In this document: positions 41,877-48,083 of the stretch, one piece after another
Numbering within the stretch: the stretch's first letter is position 1
Layout: each line of letters starts with the position of its first letter
From: a virus
DNA: 64,000 nucleotides
Virus record (IMG/VR): IMGVR_UViG_3300033149_006612
Coordinates: 1 to 64,000 of that record
Direction: 5' to 3' (one strand)
Position numbers and translations under genes: made by a program
Notes under the pieces: generated by a model
Told to the model about the DNA's origin: nothing
The model's database searches: none
The model's input: only the letters and a program-made list of their open reading frames with translations

Positions 41877-41976
41877 GTGATTTTCGTCACATAACGGATG
41901 GACTCTAGCCGGGCAATAATGGTTCACCTTAAAAATCGAAATTTAAACTGAACCATACTTGGAGCCCATTTACTAC

Positions 41977-42006
41977 TTGACAAAACCTATCCATCTGTGG
42001 TATAAT
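41977..42006 (+). promoter_or_regulatory. Rightward consensus sigma70 promoter driving the ribozyme-punctuated operon
   Basis: TTGACA (41977-41982)-N18-TATAAT (42001-42006) with TG extended -10. Confidence 0.85.
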
Positions 42007-42031
42007 AAAAAGTATGGAAAGGAGAAACACG

Positions 42032-42163
42032 ATGAACAAAGACCCACCGAGGACAATACAGCCCCTGTCGCAAGGCAAGCCACAGGAATCCTACGCTCCC
42101 ACGATGGAGACAGGCAGGGGGTCACGAAGAGGTCGAGCCAGTACGGGTCTGCCAGGACGCTAG
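42032..42163 (+). CDS. Possible 43-aa leader peptide (MNKDPPRTIQ...)
   Basis: AAAGGAGAAACACGATGAACAA start signal identical to that of the 43129 gene. Confidence 0.4.
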   Translation: MNKDPPRTIQPLSQGKPQESYAPTMETGRGSRRGRASTGLPGR

Positions 42164-42298
42164 AGGCCGAGGCAACGGATGACGCCGAGCAGAGCCACCC
42201 GGAGAGCGATGAAGACCTCGATTGAACGTGAGCGAATCGGGTAAGCCCACACCATGTGGCCGCCACCCGACCGAGCACCAGGTGCCGGTATAGTAAAT

Positions 42299-42365
42299 GA
42301 CCTGTCCGGACATACCGATTGAGTCCGCTGATGAGGATGGGGGTAGGGTCCCATCGAAACAGGTC
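42299..42365 (+). ncRNA. Hammerhead ribozyme, type III (HH1)
   Basis: Stem III GACCUG/CAGGUC; GUC site with cleavage after 42306; stem I CGGAC/GUCCG; CUGAUGA; stem II GAUGGG/CCCAUC; GAAA; loop-loop complementarity UACC/GGUA. Confidence 0.88.
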
Positions 42366-42377
42366 TTGGAGGTTACC

Positions 42378-42665
42378 ATGGCAGAGCGTTATACTCCTCA
42401 AGTTGGAGATCATTTAGTCCCCGACGGCTGGGGGTTTGGTGAGAATCTGGAAGCCGATGACGGGTATAGTGACGGCAGTTTCCCCGGATGTGAATTCCGG
42501 CTTCCGGCGGGCCTTGACCGTGTATACCGGCTTGCAGTCAACGTGAAGGTCACCGGCGGTGACCACATCGTGAACTTCGGCAGGTATCGGTCCCGCTGCA
42601 GGATCGAGTTTGTCGGTGACGGTGAACCGAGCACCTTCACCGGTGGATGGATCTACCACTCCTAA
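42378..42665 (+). CDS. Hypothetical 95-aa protein (cassette 1)
   Basis: GGAGG at 42368-42372 before MAERYTP; the track extension to 42297 runs through the ribozyme. Confidence 0.7.
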   Translation: MAERYTPQVGDHLVPDGWGFGENLEADDGYSDGSFPGCEFRLPAGLDRVYRLAVNVKVTGGDHIVNFGRYRSRCRIEFVGDGEPSTFTGGWIYHS

Positions 42666-42666
42666 A

Positions 42667-42730
42667 GCCGAAACCAGCCGAAAGGCTGGTCTGCTGGAGA
42701 TAACCTCCCAGCACTGATGATGGCAGGTTA
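42667..42730 (+). ncRNA. Hammerhead ribozyme, type II with pseudoknot (HH2)
   Basis: GCC-GAAA-CCAGCC gaaa GGCUGG-UC (cleavage after 42691)-UGCUGG...CCAGCA-CUGAUGA-u-GGC; loop UAACCU pairs with 3' AGGUUA. Confidence 0.92.
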
Positions 42731-42750
42731 CCATCGAGGAGGTTTTTACC

Positions 42751-43023
42751 ATGGAATGCCCACTTTGCGGTTCCCGCGGTTCTCGTTTCCTTAAGCCCCA
42801 TCCGAGCGTTTTCGGCGTTTACGAATGCCGAAAATGCCGAGCATTGTTCGGCGAATGCTACCTGGGAGATAGCTATTCGCTAGTGTCTCCCATGTGGTCC
42901 CGGCAGGACGTCGAGGATACCGAATGCCGGTACTTCGATTTCATCTGTGTGGGATCCGGTGGGATCACACGCAGGCATGGTTGGTTCAATCCGGCTGACG
43001 GTCGGATCGTTCAAACCGGTTGA
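42751..43023 (+). CDS. Zinc-ribbon hypothetical protein (cassette 2)
   Basis: GAGGAGG RBS; CPLC...CRKC; YFDF...RRHGW......QTG. Confidence 0.75.
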   Translation: MECPLCGSRGSRFLKPHPSVFGVYECRKCRALFGECYLGDSYSLVSPMWSRQDVEDTECRYFDFICVGSGGITRRHGWFNPADGRIVQTG

Positions 43024-43027
43024 GTAA

Positions 43028-43093
43028 GCCGAAACCGGCTAGAGATAGCCGGTCTAGCCGGGATGACCTCCGGCTACTGATGATGGTAGGTCA
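43028..43093 (+). ncRNA. Hammerhead ribozyme, type II with pseudoknot (HH3)
   Basis: GCC-GAAA-CCGGCUA gaga UAGCCGG-UC (cleavage after 43054)-UAGCCGG...CCGGCUA-CUGAUGA-u-GGU; UGACCU pairs with AGGUCA. Confidence 0.92.
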
Positions 43094-43128
43094 CTCTAAC
43101 GTTAAAAGAAAATAAAAGGAGAAACACG

Positions 43129-43536
43129 ATGAACAACGAGGTAATCGAAATCCAAGTCGCTTGCACTGACAACATCACGGCTAAATGGGCCGTGATTAAA
43201 CTGATGGTTAAGACGTCGGTCATCGACGTCTTAAGCAGATGCGATAACGGCGTCTACAAACCGCAGGTCAAGACCGGAGAGGAGATGTTCGCAATCCGTC
43301 CGGTAGTGGATGCGGTCGACATCGAGATGATCTGCCCCACCGGGGTGGTCAAGTGGGTCGCCAAACCCGGGGAGGAGATGTTCGCATTGGTCCGCCCGAT
43401 AGTGGAGGCGATCGACATCGAGCTGGGTTGCCCCACCGGGCAGATCAAGTGGGTCGTCAAAACCGACGGGATCGTCTCCATCCACGCCGTCGATGACCAG
43501 GGAATGGAGACGGTATCAATCATCAACCTGTGCTGA
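43129..43536 (+). CDS. Hypothetical protein with an internal repeat of about 32 aa (cassette 3)
   Basis: K.GEEMFA..RP.V.A.DIE..CPTG..KWV.K twice; AAGGAG RBS. Confidence 0.7.
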   Translation: MNNEVIEIQVACTDNITAKWAVIKLMVKTSVIDVLSRCDNGVYKPQVKTGEEMFAIRPVVDAVDIEMICPTGVVKWVAKPGEEMFALVRPIVEAIDIELGCPTGQIKWVVKTDGIVSIHAVDDQGMETVSIINLC

Positions 43537-43538
43537 CA

Positions 43539-43607
43539 GCCGAAATGCCGGGGGACCTCCCCCGGCATCTGCCGGAGATGACCTCCCGGCACTGATGAGG
43601 CAGGTCA
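43539..43607 (+). ncRNA. Hammerhead ribozyme, type II with pseudoknot (HH4)
   Basis: GCC-GAAA-UGCCGGGGG accu CCCCCGGCA-UC (cleavage after 43569)-UGCCGG...CCGGCA-CUGAUGA-GGC; UGACCU pairs with AGGUCA. Confidence 0.92.
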
Positions 43608-43639
43608 AATAATTCACCAAATCAGAAAGGAGAAAACAG

Positions 43640-43834
43640 ATGAAGGAAACGGGCATAGACGGAAACTGCCCCAGCTGGCCCGGTGCCAGCGAAGTTTACT
43701 CCAAGGCATACCGCTATATGGAGAAACATGGAGCAGACCACGCATTAATCAAAGCCCTGGAAAAGGGTAATGAAGAGGAGGTCAAAGCAAATATGCTCAG
43801 GATAAACACCGAATCGCTCCTGAGCATGGAATGA
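43640..43834 (+). CDS. Hypothetical 64-aa protein (cassette 4)
   Basis: AAAGGAG RBS directly after HH4. Confidence 0.65.
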   Translation: MKETGIDGNCPSWPGASEVYSKAYRYMEKHGADHALIKALEKGNEEEVKANMLRINTESLLSME

Positions 43835-43924
43835 AAGCCAATTAATAATCGTGAATCTGTTACCTATTAGTGCGCCGGGGGTGCCCCCGGCGCACAGGAG
43901 AAACGCACACACAGGAGGAACACG

Positions 43925-45043
43925 ATGGACACCAGACAGAAAATTAAAAAGATATACACCACCCTTAACGATCAACTGGTAGAGAGGTCCGAAGTCCTAC
44001 AAGGGTCGATAATAGCGATCCTTGCTCGGAAACACCTCTTCATGATCGGGCCTCCGGGTACGGCCAAATCACTCGGAATCGAGAAGTTCTGCGAGTCAAT
44101 CTCCGGCATGACATACTTCGAGGAACTGATGACCCAGCAGACAAAGCCCGAGGACCTCTTCGGTCCGATCAAAGTCTCAGCGTATAGAGAAGATCGATAT
44201 GAGCGGAACGTCGAAGGATTCCTACCGACTGCCGACATCGCCTTTCTCGACGAGATCTTTAAGGCCGGTGGACCAAATCTTAATCCGCTGCTGAGGCTGA
44301 CGGATGAAACGCGCAAATTCCGGAACGGCAAACCCCAGATGGAGCGATGTCCGCTGAACAGCCTGTTTGCCGCCAGTAATGAATTCCCCGAGAACGCAGC
44401 CGAACTCAGCGCTCTTTGGGACCGGCTGCTACTCCGATATGTGGTGGACGACATCGTCGATGATTCCAACTTCGAAGCCATGATGGCCTTGGAGGAAATC
44501 AAAATCGAGCACACCATCACCAAGGAGGAGCTCCGGCAAGCCCAGGAGGAGGTCGACCGGGTAAAGATCACACCAGAAATCATCCATGTGCTGACCGAAC
44601 TCCGCTCGAAGCTCCGGAAGGAAGGATATATATTTTCTCCCCGGAGATGGCGGGAGTCAAAGCAGGTCCTCAGGGCTCATGCCTGGTTCCACGGCCGGGA
44701 CGAGGTCTCCGAGGATGATCTTGAAATCCTGGCCGCGGTCCTCTGGGACAGGCCCGAGCAACGGCGCGAGGTACTTCGCATCTTGATGTCCACCACCAAT
44801 CCCGACACTGCCACAGCCCTAGCGTTGTTCGACGACATCCAAGAGATCATTGATGACATCGAAAAGCAGCCGGACGAATCGGCCAAACTCGCTGCCAGTC
44901 AGGAGGCCGTAGTCAAACTCCGGGATATGATCCCGCTGTTTGACAACTTCCGGCCCCACGCTAAGATTTTTGAATTAAAAAATCAGGCCATAGAGATGCA
45001 ACGTGCCGTCGTCCGGAGGTATTTCGGAATTAACATTAACTGA
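43925..45043 (+). CDS. MoxR/RavA-family AAA+ ATPase
   Basis: GPPGTAKS, LFGP, FLDEIFKA, ASNE, ALWDR, SPRRW. Confidence 0.9.
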   Translation: MDTRQKIKKIYTTLNDQLVERSEVLQGSIIAILARKHLFMIGPPGTAKSLGIEKFCESISGMTYFEELMTQQTKPEDLFGPIKVSAYREDRYERNVEGFLPTADIAFLDEIFKAGGPNLNPLLRLTDETRKFRNGKPQMERCPLNSLFAASNEFPENAAELSALWDRLLLRYVVDDIVDDSNFEAMMALEEIKIEHTITKEELRQAQEEVDRVKITPEIIHVLTELRSKLRKEGYIFSPRRWRESKQVLRAHAWFHGRDEVSEDDLEILAAVLWDRPEQRREVLRILMSTTNPDTATALALFDDIQEIIDDIEKQPDESAKLAASQEAVVKLRDMIPLFDNFRPHAKIFELKNQAIEMQRAVVRRYFGININ

Positions 45044-45053
45044 GGAGGCAGTC

Positions 45054-46490
45054 ATGTTCGTAACCAATGTTGACGCATTCGACCGGAGGACATTCGAGGA
45101 CATCGCTCCCCGGTCCAGCAAGGTGGAGGACATCCGGTCCTCCGCCGAATATTCCGAATACGGAGACCTGCTAGAGGATCTCATGGTTGACGGCTTCGGC
45201 TCCCTGTACAAATACGCCCCCCGGGTTCTGGAAGACGTCCCACCGGAACGGATTCTCTCCAAGCGGGTCATTGAACAGTGGCAACAGTTACCGGAATGGC
45301 AGCAGTTCCGGAAGTTCACCGTAGGTGACGAGATCGTCAGTATGGGAGCCGTAGACGCCGTGTACCGGGTGTTCAAGGAGATGCCGGTCGAGGTTAAACG
45401 ACGCCAACGGGAACTCCAGGACTTCTCGGATCGGCTGACCGAAATGTTGAATTCCGACGATACTGATTTTGGTAGTGACGAATTCAAGGATGCGGTAACC
45501 GACATGGTCGAAGCCGGTAATAGGGTGGATCAAGCCCTGGATGCCGACGAGGACCGGATACGAAAATTGTGCCGGGTGGCACTTCGAGAGGCCGCGGATG
45601 AGGCAGAGATCGAGGGAAAGGCAATGCTGGCACTCGGTTTTGATGACTCTACCGGGGAACTTAACGGTTCCCACAAGGACGATCGAATCAAAATAGCCAG
45701 CATGCTGCAGAACAATCCCAAGCTTCGAGAAATCGTTAAACTCGCCGGTCGATTCTGCTATGTGGCGGATAAAAAGCAGCGGGAGAAATCCGAATACGCC
45801 CGGTCCCAGGTATCCGGTATTGAATTCGGAGACGACCTGCAGCGGGTAACCCCCTCCGATATGGCCCTCCTGTCCGATAAAGACTTAGAGGAATTGTTCT
45901 GGCTGAAGTACATCGAATCAGGACTCCAGCTCTACAAGATCACCGGCACCGAGACCCTAGGTAAAGGACCCGTCGTGATAATGGTCGACTGTTCCGGTAG
46001 TATGGCGGGTCAGAAGGATATATGGGCAAAAGCCATGGCCCTAGCGGGTTATTCCATAGCCCGGAAGCAAAACCGGGACTTCGCCTTTCTGTTATACAAC
46101 ACCGAGGTCAGGAAACAGATCTACCTTAAATCCGGCACCGGCAAACGGAACATGACCGGTCTGGCCGAGATTCTATCATCCGGCGTCGGCGGTGGTACCG
46201 ATTTCGAAGTTCCCATCACATACGCCATGCGGGAGGTCCTAACCAGGTCCGAATTTACCAAGGCCGACATCATCTTCATCTCGGACGGTTACTACATGAT
46301 CGGTGACGACTGGTTCCGGGATTATCAAACCCGAAAGGACGGTATGGAATTCGCGTTCTGGGGAATTCAAATCGGCCCCAGGCTGAGAGGTATGGACGCG
46401 TTGGATAGACTGAGCGACGACGTGGTTTACCTGGACGGTGACATCCTGGCCAATCAGGACCGGGCTTTTGACATGGCCTTTACCATCTAA
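45054..46490 (+). CDS. VWA-domain protein (ViaA-like partner)
   Basis: GPV...VDCSGSM MIDAS, GGGTDF, ISDG; GAGGAGG RBS before MFVTN. Confidence 0.88.
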   Translation: MFVTNVDAFDRRTFEDIAPRSSKVEDIRSSAEYSEYGDLLEDLMVDGFGSLYKYAPRVLEDVPPERILSKRVIEQWQQLPEWQQFRKFTVGDEIVSMGAVDAVYRVFKEMPVEVKRRQRELQDFSDRLTEMLNSDDTDFGSDEFKDAVTDMVEAGNRVDQALDADEDRIRKLCRVALREAADEAEIEGKAMLALGFDDSTGELNGSHKDDRIKIASMLQNNPKLREIVKLAGRFCYVADKKQREKSEYARSQVSGIEFGDDLQRVTPSDMALLSDKDLEELFWLKYIESGLQLYKITGTETLGKGPVVIMVDCSGSMAGQKDIWAKAMALAGYSIARKQNRDFAFLLYNTEVRKQIYLKSGTGKRNMTGLAEILSSGVGGGTDFEVPITYAMREVLTRSEFTKADIIFISDGYYMIGDDWFRDYQTRKDGMEFAFWGIQIGPRLRGMDALDRLSDDVVYLDGDILANQDRAFDMAFTI

Positions 46491-46582
46491 CCCGTCAATG
46501 AAAACAAATCTCAACCATGGAATCCGTTAATGAAGCCGGGGAAGGATGTCCCCGGCAAAGCCCATCATCGAGGAGAAAGACG

Positions 46583-47815
46583 ATGAAACAAAAAGAGGAA
46601 ATCAAGCGAACAATCGCAGAACAGGCGAACGGCCTCCCCATACTGGGCCACCTGGTCTGGTGGACCGTCCACAAGGTGGAAATCCCCAGACTGGACTTGG
46701 AAGACCTGCTCGCGAAGACCGTCGGCATTCAATACATGCCCACCGAGCACCGGAAGGCTAAAGCTCTCAAGAGGGGCTTAGAATCGATGAGGGAAGCTGG
46801 CCTGCTGGACCTCATCCGTGATGACAAGGTCATGACGGCTTATCAGATCACCGATAAGATGATCGACGTCAAGGAGGTCAAGGCCGACTACCGCCGCAAG
46901 GCCGCGGTCCAATTCGTGAAGCGGGGAGACGGGGTCCCGATGGGTGGGGAAATCCGGGTATACGGTGATGTGGACAGGAAGGAGGTCCAAGAACGGTTGG
47001 ACCACTACCTGCAGGTGTACACCGCCGATGACATCCGAATGATCCTCAAGGCATATGTCAGAGACAATGCCGGGATCAACCTGAATGAGAACGGCCTCCT
47101 CTACTTCGTCCCCGAGCCTGAGGTAGTTGACGTCATGAAGGTTTTCCTGGAAGCCGTCGGTGGTGACCTTGGGCTCTCCCCGGTTACCGACACCGAATAC
47201 GTCAAGACCAACATGGTCACTCGGATTCGTGATGAACTGGAGGCCGAAATCGAATCGGCCGCCGAGGAGGTCAAGAGGATGAGCAGCAGCAAGTTCACCA
47301 GAGGACTGACCTTCAAAGCCCGGTTAAAGGAATTCGCCGCTCTCAAGAACAGATGTGAGACGTACAGCGAGCTACTGAAGTTGGATGCCGAGACCATGAT
47401 TCAGAAGGTGTCCGAGCTCCAGGAATCGGTAGAGGATTCCCTAATGGGAATCCACGTGGATTACCCCCAGATGAAGGAGTTCCCCTATGGCACCCGGGTC
47501 AGATACACCGGCGACGCCCCTAAACTGCTCATCAACCTTAACGGCAGCACTACCGGAACGGTAATCGGGTATCTCAATTCCAAGACCGGGAAACAATACG
47601 TCAAAGTTCGGTTCGATACTAAAGATATCAAGGTCATCCGGCCGATTGCACCGGGCAACCTGGAGATCACCGAACGCGCCGTGGAAACCGATCTGACGGA
47701 GATGGATGAGGATCAATTGCTGGCCAGGTTCGAAGTCTCCCCCGGCTGGTACCAGATCCCCGGTCACACCAAAAAAGTCCGGAAGGCGGAAGCCGTTCAA
47801 TTACTGAAAGCGTAA
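46583..47815 (+). CDS. Conserved-looking phage hypothetical protein
   Basis: LGHLVWW, G..YFVP and a coiled-coil segment; AGGAG RBS before MKQKEE. Confidence 0.65.
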   Translation: MKQKEEIKRTIAEQANGLPILGHLVWWTVHKVEIPRLDLEDLLAKTVGIQYMPTEHRKAKALKRGLESMREAGLLDLIRDDKVMTAYQITDKMIDVKEVKADYRRKAAVQFVKRGDGVPMGGEIRVYGDVDRKEVQERLDHYLQVYTADDIRMILKAYVRDNAGINLNENGLLYFVPEPEVVDVMKVFLEAVGGDLGLSPVTDTEYVKTNMVTRIRDELEAEIESAAEEVKRMSSSKFTRGLTFKARLKEFAALKNRCETYSELLKLDAETMIQKVSELQESVEDSLMGIHVDYPQMKEFPYGTRVRYTGDAPKLLINLNGSTTGTVIGYLNSKTGKQYVKVRFDTKDIKVIRPIAPGNLEITERAVETDLTEMDEDQLLARFEVSPGWYQIPGHTKKVRKAEAVQLLKA

Positions 47816-48055: not shown

Positions 48056-48083
48056 AAGAGGGGGGCGTCATGGCCCCCCTCTT
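48056..48083. terminator. Terminator hairpin between convergent operons
   Basis: AAGAGGGGGGC/GCCCCCCTCTT 11-bp stem; T-rich tail on the minus strand. Confidence 0.75.

Follow-up and report, generated by a model that had tools for sequence, protein, structure and literature searches.

Four hammerhead ribozymes punctuate a run of small genes in a 64-kb stretch of phage DNA (hereafter the window), positions 1 to 64,000 of the 80,182-bp IMG/VR virus record IMGVR_UViG_3300033149_006612. Three are canonical type II hammerheads and one is a type III variant. Lying in the intercistronic gaps, they probably self-cut the RNA of the operon, which would let each gene differ from the next in stability and translation. 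All four (HH1 to HH4) are co-oriented within a span of 1.3 kb, with one gene between each neighbouring pair. The source of the window is a tailed phage: the record has direct terminal repeats and a completeness rating of 100%, and the window contains genes for a large terminase, portal, head-morphogenesis and baseplate proteins, a family A DNA polymerase, helicases and an SbcC-like nuclease. The ribozymes are as follows.

42299..42365, plus strand: HH1, type III variant, found by descriptor scan; predicted cut after C42306 (GUC)
42666..42732, plus strand: HH2, type II, pseudoknot UAACCU/AGGUUA; RF02276 score 43.1 bits; predicted cut after C42691 (GUC)
43027..43095, plus strand: HH3, type II, pseudoknot UGACCU/AGGUCA; RF02276 score 46.5 bits; predicted cut after C43054 (GUC)
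43538..43609, plus strand: HH4, type II, pseudoknot UGACCU/AGGUCA; RF02276 score 44.0 bits; predicted cut after C43569 (AUC)

Hammerheads were sought with the Rfam models of clan CL00010, whose gathering scores are 37 bits for RF02276 (type II) and 48.5 bits for RF00008 (type III), and with a descriptor scanner of our own that searches both strands for types I, II and III, defined by the core CUGANGA, GAAA and U16.1-H17 together with three core-adjacent helices. Over the 64 kb and both strands, the scanner returned exactly HH1 to HH4, all on the plus strand, and returned nothing in 20 shuffles. These are the four elements placed here by the original prediction, which had been made by reading the letters of this DNA; the limits of HH1 recur exactly in its RF00008 match, and the four cut positions are the same by descriptor scan. 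The proposed confirmation by covariance model held for HH2, HH3 and HH4, which exceed the gathering score with window-wide E-values of 2e-6 to 2e-5, but not for HH1 (37.0 versus 48.5 bits). The core is complete in all four copies, with CUGAUGA, GAAA, an A15.1-U16.1 junction pair and a cleavage site of the expected NUC form (GUC, GUC, GUC and AUC). Stems I, II and III measure 5, 7 and 7 bp in HH1, 6, 3 and 7 bp in HH2, 8, 3 and 8 bp in HH3, and 6, 3 and 10 bp in HH4. In minimum-energy folds, HH1, HH2 and HH4 take the form of the three-way junction, and HH3 forms two of its three helices. A single U is added between A9 and G10.1 in both HH2 and HH3. No ribozyme class other than the hammerhead reached its Rfam gathering score anywhere in the window, and an Rfam scan of the rest of the 80-kb genome gave no further hammerhead copies.

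The type II copies were compared with one another, at pairwise identities of 76-79%. In stem I, four of the six pairs are changed on both sides; the 6-bp pseudoknot between loop I and the 3' tail is paired in each copy, with one of its six pairs changed on both sides, a compensatory replacement of A-U by G-C. Stem I and the pseudoknot together give 36 cells, each of them a standard pair (100%), whereas slid controls, in which the partners were moved by 1-3 columns, were paired in 19-56% of cells and contained no compensatory pair, against five observed. In stem III, each of the six shared non-junction positions varies on both strands, and no mismatch results. The claims that stems I and III stay paired despite their divergence and that the pseudoknot covaries are thus borne out by eleven compensatory pairs, and the structure of the type II copies is evidently under selection, though three sequences are few. 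The same data bear on the reading of the motifs as chance matches or inactive, decayed relics. No distant relative conserves the array, which is in keeping with that reading, but the absence of any descriptor match in shuffled sequence against four in the window, the window-wide E-values and the eleven compensatory pairs with zero mismatches make it extremely improbable. We take HH2, HH3 and HH4 to be very probably active ribozymes.

HH1 calls for more caution. It is a hammerhead by descriptor and a variant, not a curated member of RF00008: it has E = 4.8e-7 when 131 nt are scanned, which scales to about 2e-4 for the window, and it was not returned by 5-kb or whole-genome Rfam scans. An extra G separates A9 from stem II, at the position where HH2 and HH3 have their extra U. 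The same A9/G10.1 site has been studied in the (+) hammerhead of chrysanthemum chlorotic mottle viroid (CChMVd), where an inserted A goes with a moderately lower rate, a U with a 3-4 fold higher one, and a C or G, including an A10-to-G change, is strongly detrimental (PMC3705267, summarising De la Pena and Flores 2001). HH1 may for this reason be slow. If it were slow or dead, only HH2 to HH4 would act, and the first gene of the array (ORF1) would stay joined to the leader and to the candidate open reading frame within it (ORF0). The low score, the failure of the larger scans to return HH1 and the viroid precedent speak for such an outcome. Yet the core of HH1 is full, its three helices measure 5, 7 and 7 bp, its site is GUC, and its insertion is not singular. 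Of 56 phage type III hammerheads that were found by pattern and confirmed by the scanner, 14 have one nucleotide inserted after A9, 11 times a U and 3 times a G, so that a G detrimental in a viroid type III ribozyme serving rolling-circle replication occurs naturally in phages. Moreover, a similar type III hammerhead, with a U inserted after A9, heads six small genes, an ORF1 homologue among them, that are closed off by a type I hammerhead (locus L141, 2234-3876 of IMGVR_UViG_3300028584_000249), although neither ribozyme of that locus reaches its Rfam gathering score. Loop I of HH1 (UACC) could pair with GGUA of loop II over 4 bp, a match that by our own rough estimate about one in six loop pairs would offer by chance. 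We consider an inactive or sluggish HH1 possible but doubtful, and HH1 itself likely to be active, if possibly slow.

In order, the elements of the operon are promoter, ORF0, HH1, ORF1, HH2, ORF2, HH3, ORF3, HH4, ORF4, a hairpin, and genes for MoxR, VWA and DUF6744 proteins.

41977..42006, plus strand: sigma-70-type consensus promoter, TTGACA-18-TATAAT with a TG extension, 12 of 12 matches; predicted start near 42013
42032..42163, plus strand: candidate ORF0, 43 codons, in the leader; shares its ribosome-binding site (RBS)/start module with ORF3
42378..42665, plus strand: ORF1, 95 aa, conserved phage small-protein family; 64 homologues, no Pfam or PHROG match
42751..43023, plus strand: ORF2, 90 aa, four-Cys zinc-ribbon-like protein; 223 cluster representatives at E <= 0.001
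43129..43536, plus strand: ORF3, 135 aa, orphan; self-match only among 5.8 billion proteins
43640..43834, plus strand: ORF4, 64 aa, no relatives found; no Pfam or PHROG match
43870..43895, plus strand: G+C hairpin between ORF4 and MoxR, 11 bp, no U tract; fold z = -2.97; not called a terminator
43925-45043, plus strand: MoxR-type AAA ATPase; Pfam bpMoxR 2.6e-46, PHROG ATPase
45003-46490, plus strand: VWA protein; Pfam VWA_2 7e-8
46517-47815, plus strand: DUF6744 protein; Pfam DUF6744 2.5e-14

Stop codons at 42663-65, 43021-23 and 43534-36 precede the type II copies by 1-4 nt, and the pseudoknot tails stop 4-20 nt upstream of the next Shine-Dalgarno sequence, which agrees with the arrangement of stop codon, ribozyme and RBS originally described. 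Upstream, the TTGACA and TATAAT hexamers are perfect, as had been said of the promoter, and occur together only here in the 64 kb, against 0.01 occurrences expected; the spacer, at 18 nt, departs from the optimal 17. This host-type consensus promoter is the sole ground on which the genes might be called early. What had been taken simply for a leader does precede HH1 but is likely to hold a gene: the 22-nt RBS/start module of ORF0 is identical to that of ORF3 and has near-copies at ORF4 and at the MoxR gene (repeat family D3), for which reason ORF0 is probably translated. The module (AAAGGAGAAACACGATGAAC...) lies at 42018-42039, 43115-43136, 43626-43650 and 43911-43935 for ORF0, ORF3, ORF4 and MoxR, respectively; ORF1 and ORF2 have start modules that differ from it. 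Between ORF0 and HH1 there remain 135 nt of non-coding sequence. The leader (42005-42305) gave no Rfam match at E <= 1 and folds no better than its shuffles (z = +0.34).

These elements suggest the following course of events. Each ribozyme would fold during transcription and self-cut, after 42306, 42691, 43054 and 43569, to give a 294-nt leader RNA, three one-gene mRNAs of 385, 363 and 515 nt, and a 3' RNA carrying ORF4 together with MoxR, VWA and DUF6744. At each type II cut, the upstream product would end in a closed stem III hairpin followed by C17 with a 2',3'-cyclic phosphate, and the downstream product would begin with U1.1, bearing a 5'-OH and already paired within a closed stem I hairpin. 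The two halves should separate readily because the 3-bp stem II alone joins them. Both ends made by a type II cut would thus lie in hairpins, and this would account for a preference for the type between genes. Hammerhead cleavage is known to produce 5'-OH and 2',3'-cyclic phosphate ends. Neither 3' exonucleases nor polyadenylation act well on a 3' hairpin that bears a cyclic phosphate, and RNase E, which is stimulated by a 5' monophosphate, acts poorly on a 5'-OH end that is paired. In hosts with RNase J1, on the other hand, a 5'-OH end can mark an RNA for decay, as with the glmS ribozyme, which depends on a metabolite and destabilises its own mRNA via RNase J1; Collins reportedly found in 2007 that it is the 5'-OH product of glmS that Bacillus degrades. 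RiboJ, a synthetic ribozyme insulator, likewise self-cleaves to make a new 5'-OH end and changes the context of translation. The ribozymes of the window resemble both in that self-cleavage would set a new 5'-OH end; unlike in glmS, nothing indicates dependence on a ligand. We infer that the new ends uncouple the stability and the translation of the adjoining genes; the control of stability and stoichiometry named in the original prediction is an inference of the same kind.

Which of these two effects matters more is a separate matter. The main task of the array could be to insulate translation and not to tune decay, upstream RNA being removed so that each RBS folds alike; the two roles are compatible. 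In a folding model, processing leaves the Shine-Dalgarno sequence of three of the four genes at least as accessible as before (0.63 versus 0.22-0.41 for ORF1, 0.60 versus 0.13-0.58 for ORF3 and 0.94 versus 0.63-0.71 for ORF4), although accessibility is unchanged for ORF2 and the model takes no account of pseudoknots or co-transcriptional folding. The closeness of phage hammerheads to the next start codon (median 31 nt) points the same way, as does an unrelated array (L277, described below), in which the 3' strand of stem III of the type III copy is itself a GAGGAG Shine-Dalgarno sequence; cleavage and strand release could there unmask translation. The model lends weak support to an insulating role in addition to processing; as the main job of the ribozymes, insulation is a tentative proposal that we think rather unlikely, and self-processing of the transcript, with effects on both stability and translation, remains our preferred account.

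Arrays of this kind recur in other viruses. A pattern derived from the type II copies of the window matched more than 116 stretches in IMG/VR; RF02276 was run on 50 of those records and matched in 35, with four copies 325-560 nt apart in each of two records (G012 and G023) and three in another (G034). A type III pattern matched 58 stretches, against about 4 expected by chance on our own estimate. Over all fetched loci, our scanner recorded 33 strand-loci with at least two hammerheads, 11 with at least three and 5 with at least four; this sample was picked by sequence patterns and the strict scanner and is not a census. Among 165 phage hammerheads, the ribozyme follows the preceding stop codon by a median of 8 nt and precedes the start of the next open reading frame by a median of 31 nt. 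A parallel in architecture is L277 (117-2351 of IMGVR_UViG_3300008629_000049), from an unrelated phage of high G+C content, where one type III copy precedes four of type II, spaced 350-440 nt apart except for the last, which lies about 980 nt further on; the order of types is that of the window. Near-identical copies were seen within some arrays, four type II in L138 (2913-4008) and four type III in L274 (973-2688); two of the L138 copies have CUGACGA in place of CUGAUGA.

Ribozymes of one array resemble one another more closely than those of different loci do (median identity 0.75 versus 0.68, Mann-Whitney p = 4e-8), which points to local duplication. The same resemblance could suit another scheme, in which the units 42692-43054 and 43055-43569 are joined end to end as circular mRNAs, or the ribozyme repeats are recombination points for the swapping of cassettes. 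A complete hammerhead could indeed be rebuilt from the 5' half of a copy and the 3' half of its successor, since stem II pairs GCC with GGC or GGU throughout. However, a 3-bp stem II is too weak to join ends 360-515 nt apart, Perreault et al. (2011, PLoS Comput Biol, PMC3088659) looked for spliced or circular products in their own phage arrays and found none, and the gene content beside the ribozymes shows no shared cassettes. We regard circles or cassette swapping as very unlikely. Hardly more probable is a wider version, a modular cassette system in which paralogous ribozymes bound interchangeable units that would be gained, lost and shuffled by recombination at the DNA level and closed at the RNA level into translatable circular mRNAs, through compatible half-ribozymes or a host RtcB-type ligase.

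ORF1 belongs to a family of all-beta proteins of about 95 residues with the motif IEFVGDGEPSTFTGGW, which has no member in 185,579 bacterial and archaeal genomes. Its predicted model is all-beta with a predicted local distance difference test (pLDDT) score of 86; the sole viral structural match is an uncharacterised member of the family, and a search against the PDB gave no match at E <= 0.001. A resemblance to the Levivirus coat protein (E about 0.3, template-modelling score about 0.28) was dismissed as noise. In the ORF2 family, C3, C6, C26 and C29 are invariant, and the match to Zn_ribbon_IS1595 is weak and below the cut-off. ORF3 contains a tandem duplication at 43269-43465 of about 96 nt (32 residues) with 83-88% DNA identity (repeat families D2 and D5); a protein atlas search yielded no lead for ORF3 or ORF4. 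In the other arrays, 40 open reading frames are flanked by hammerheads; few are annotated, those with names being one ArdC-type anti-restriction protein and two DUF932 proteins, and none of the window's open reading frames has a homologue among these arrays.

Conversely, relatives of the window's genes are seldom accompanied by a ribozyme. Loci with an ORF1 relative (14 viral and 77 metagenomic) contain a hammerhead in 4 of 91 cases, namely L141, L191 and L192 (which are one stretch) and L201, and loci with an ORF2 relative in 0 of 20. Viral loci with a MoxR relative (31-48% identity) have no ribozyme at the Rfam gathering score in any of 12 cases, duplicates left out; over all 15 such loci, the only hit of our scanner was a type II motif in L016, repeated in its duplicate L017, at about 4.4 kb downstream of the gene. 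Having no ribozyme near the gene, the MoxR-relative loci are therefore unusable as orthologous regions for a test of conservation. A distant blastn search with 41900-44000 gave zero matches among the INPHARED annotated phages, and a look-up for 41950-44000 among public sequencing runs listed none, RNA runs included. Where the same alternation of gene and ribozyme was to be sought in related phages, comparable arrays were seen in an unrelated phage (L277) and in G012, G023 and G034, and hammerheads almost never beside relatives of ORF1, ORF2 or MoxR. Given how scarce hammerheads are at these relatives, punctuation belongs to particular operons of small accessory genes, and not to particular genes.

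Four observations weigh against the account that we favour. The array lacks conservation between lineages: the sole relative that holds it is a contig 99.4% identical (L004), which begins after HH1 and gives no evidence of covariation because its three type II copies are identical to those of the window. ORF1 and ORF2 relatives do without hammerheads, so the ribozymes are dispensable for the expression of these genes. HH1 scores below the Rfam threshold and has its extra G at a site where this change is detrimental in CChMVd. Lastly, whether a 5'-OH end would stabilise or destabilise the new mRNAs hinges on the RNases of the host.

Downstream of the array, the MoxR, VWA and DUF6744 genes (43925..47815) are co-oriented with it, and no terminator-like site precedes the one at 48056-48083, which has a T run and lies between convergent operons. 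The transcription unit would accordingly be a phage operon of roughly 6 kb behind a host-type consensus promoter. The nearest relatives of the MoxR protein are encoded on phage-like contigs (45-58% identity), followed by the bacterial MoxR of ternary conflict systems. Two short sequences in the neighbourhood recall the ribozymes. The gap at 43835-43895 has a hammerhead-like AAGCC directly after the ORF4 stop codon, and CCGGGGG...CCCCCGG is common to its 11-bp hairpin and to stem III of HH4. As a fifth, decayed hammerhead, 43835-43924 was rejected, for it is without GAAA, CUGAUGA or stem I; the gap may be a decayed ribozyme copy or a mere stabilising hairpin. Similarly, AGGTTACCAT at 42370-42379, just 5' of the ORF1 start, equals the pseudoknot tail of HH2 (42725-42734; repeat family D6). 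This copy has no pairing partner in the loops of HH1, and it might be the remnant of an older type II ribozyme at the position of HH1.

The original prediction did not recognise the gene-by-gene array as a characterised system, and in this it was mistaken. Clustered hammerheads flanking single genes were described in prophages of Agrobacterium tumefaciens, Azorhizobium caulinodans and Clostridium scindens in 2011; three arrays cleaved as expected in vitro, that of A. tumefaciens also in vivo, and it was proposed that they cut long transcripts into single-gene mRNAs (PMC3088659). A 2019 review took up the idea that such processing could yield transcripts differing in stability or translation efficiency, and called the roles of bacterial ribozymes 'largely elusive' (PMC6765202). 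The claim to novelty fails because self-cutting into one-gene RNAs is the hypothesis already published for such arrays, and arrays of three to five copies occur in our IMG/VR sample as well. The locus is a small, tidy, mixed-type example of known phage ribozyme arrays that would not surprise a specialist, and it leaves the elusive role of bacterial and phage hammerheads unchanged. Its value is that of a compact test case: promoter, leader, a type III variant, three type II copies and four small genes fit within 1.9 kb, so that the locus can be cloned whole for comparison with dead-ribozyme mutants. It shows in addition that these ribozymes do not go with particular flanking genes, two families that usually go without hammerheads carrying them here, and it draws attention to an insertion after A9 that is common in phage hammerheads and mostly a U.

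Comparison with systems of known activity places the locus more exactly. Three type II hammerheads near phage-like genes of Desulfovibrio vulgaris cleave in vivo (cyPhyRNA-seq, PMC8782182); HH2, HH3 and HH4 share with them the core, the connectivity, the 6-bp pseudoknot and the proximity to phage-like genes, but differ in the extra U of HH2 and HH3 and in forming an array, whereas the D. vulgaris copies lie at separate loci. As in the arrays of 2011, co-oriented hammerheads of mixed type stand between single small phage genes, the flanked genes are not conserved, and the ArdC-type and DUF932 genes of other arrays fit the ardA example given then. Unlike those arrays, for which cleavage was assayed, the one described here is read from its sequence; it comprises four copies directly behind a consensus promoter, and it belongs to a complete, virulent-looking phage of 80 kb with terminal repeats and not to a prophage.

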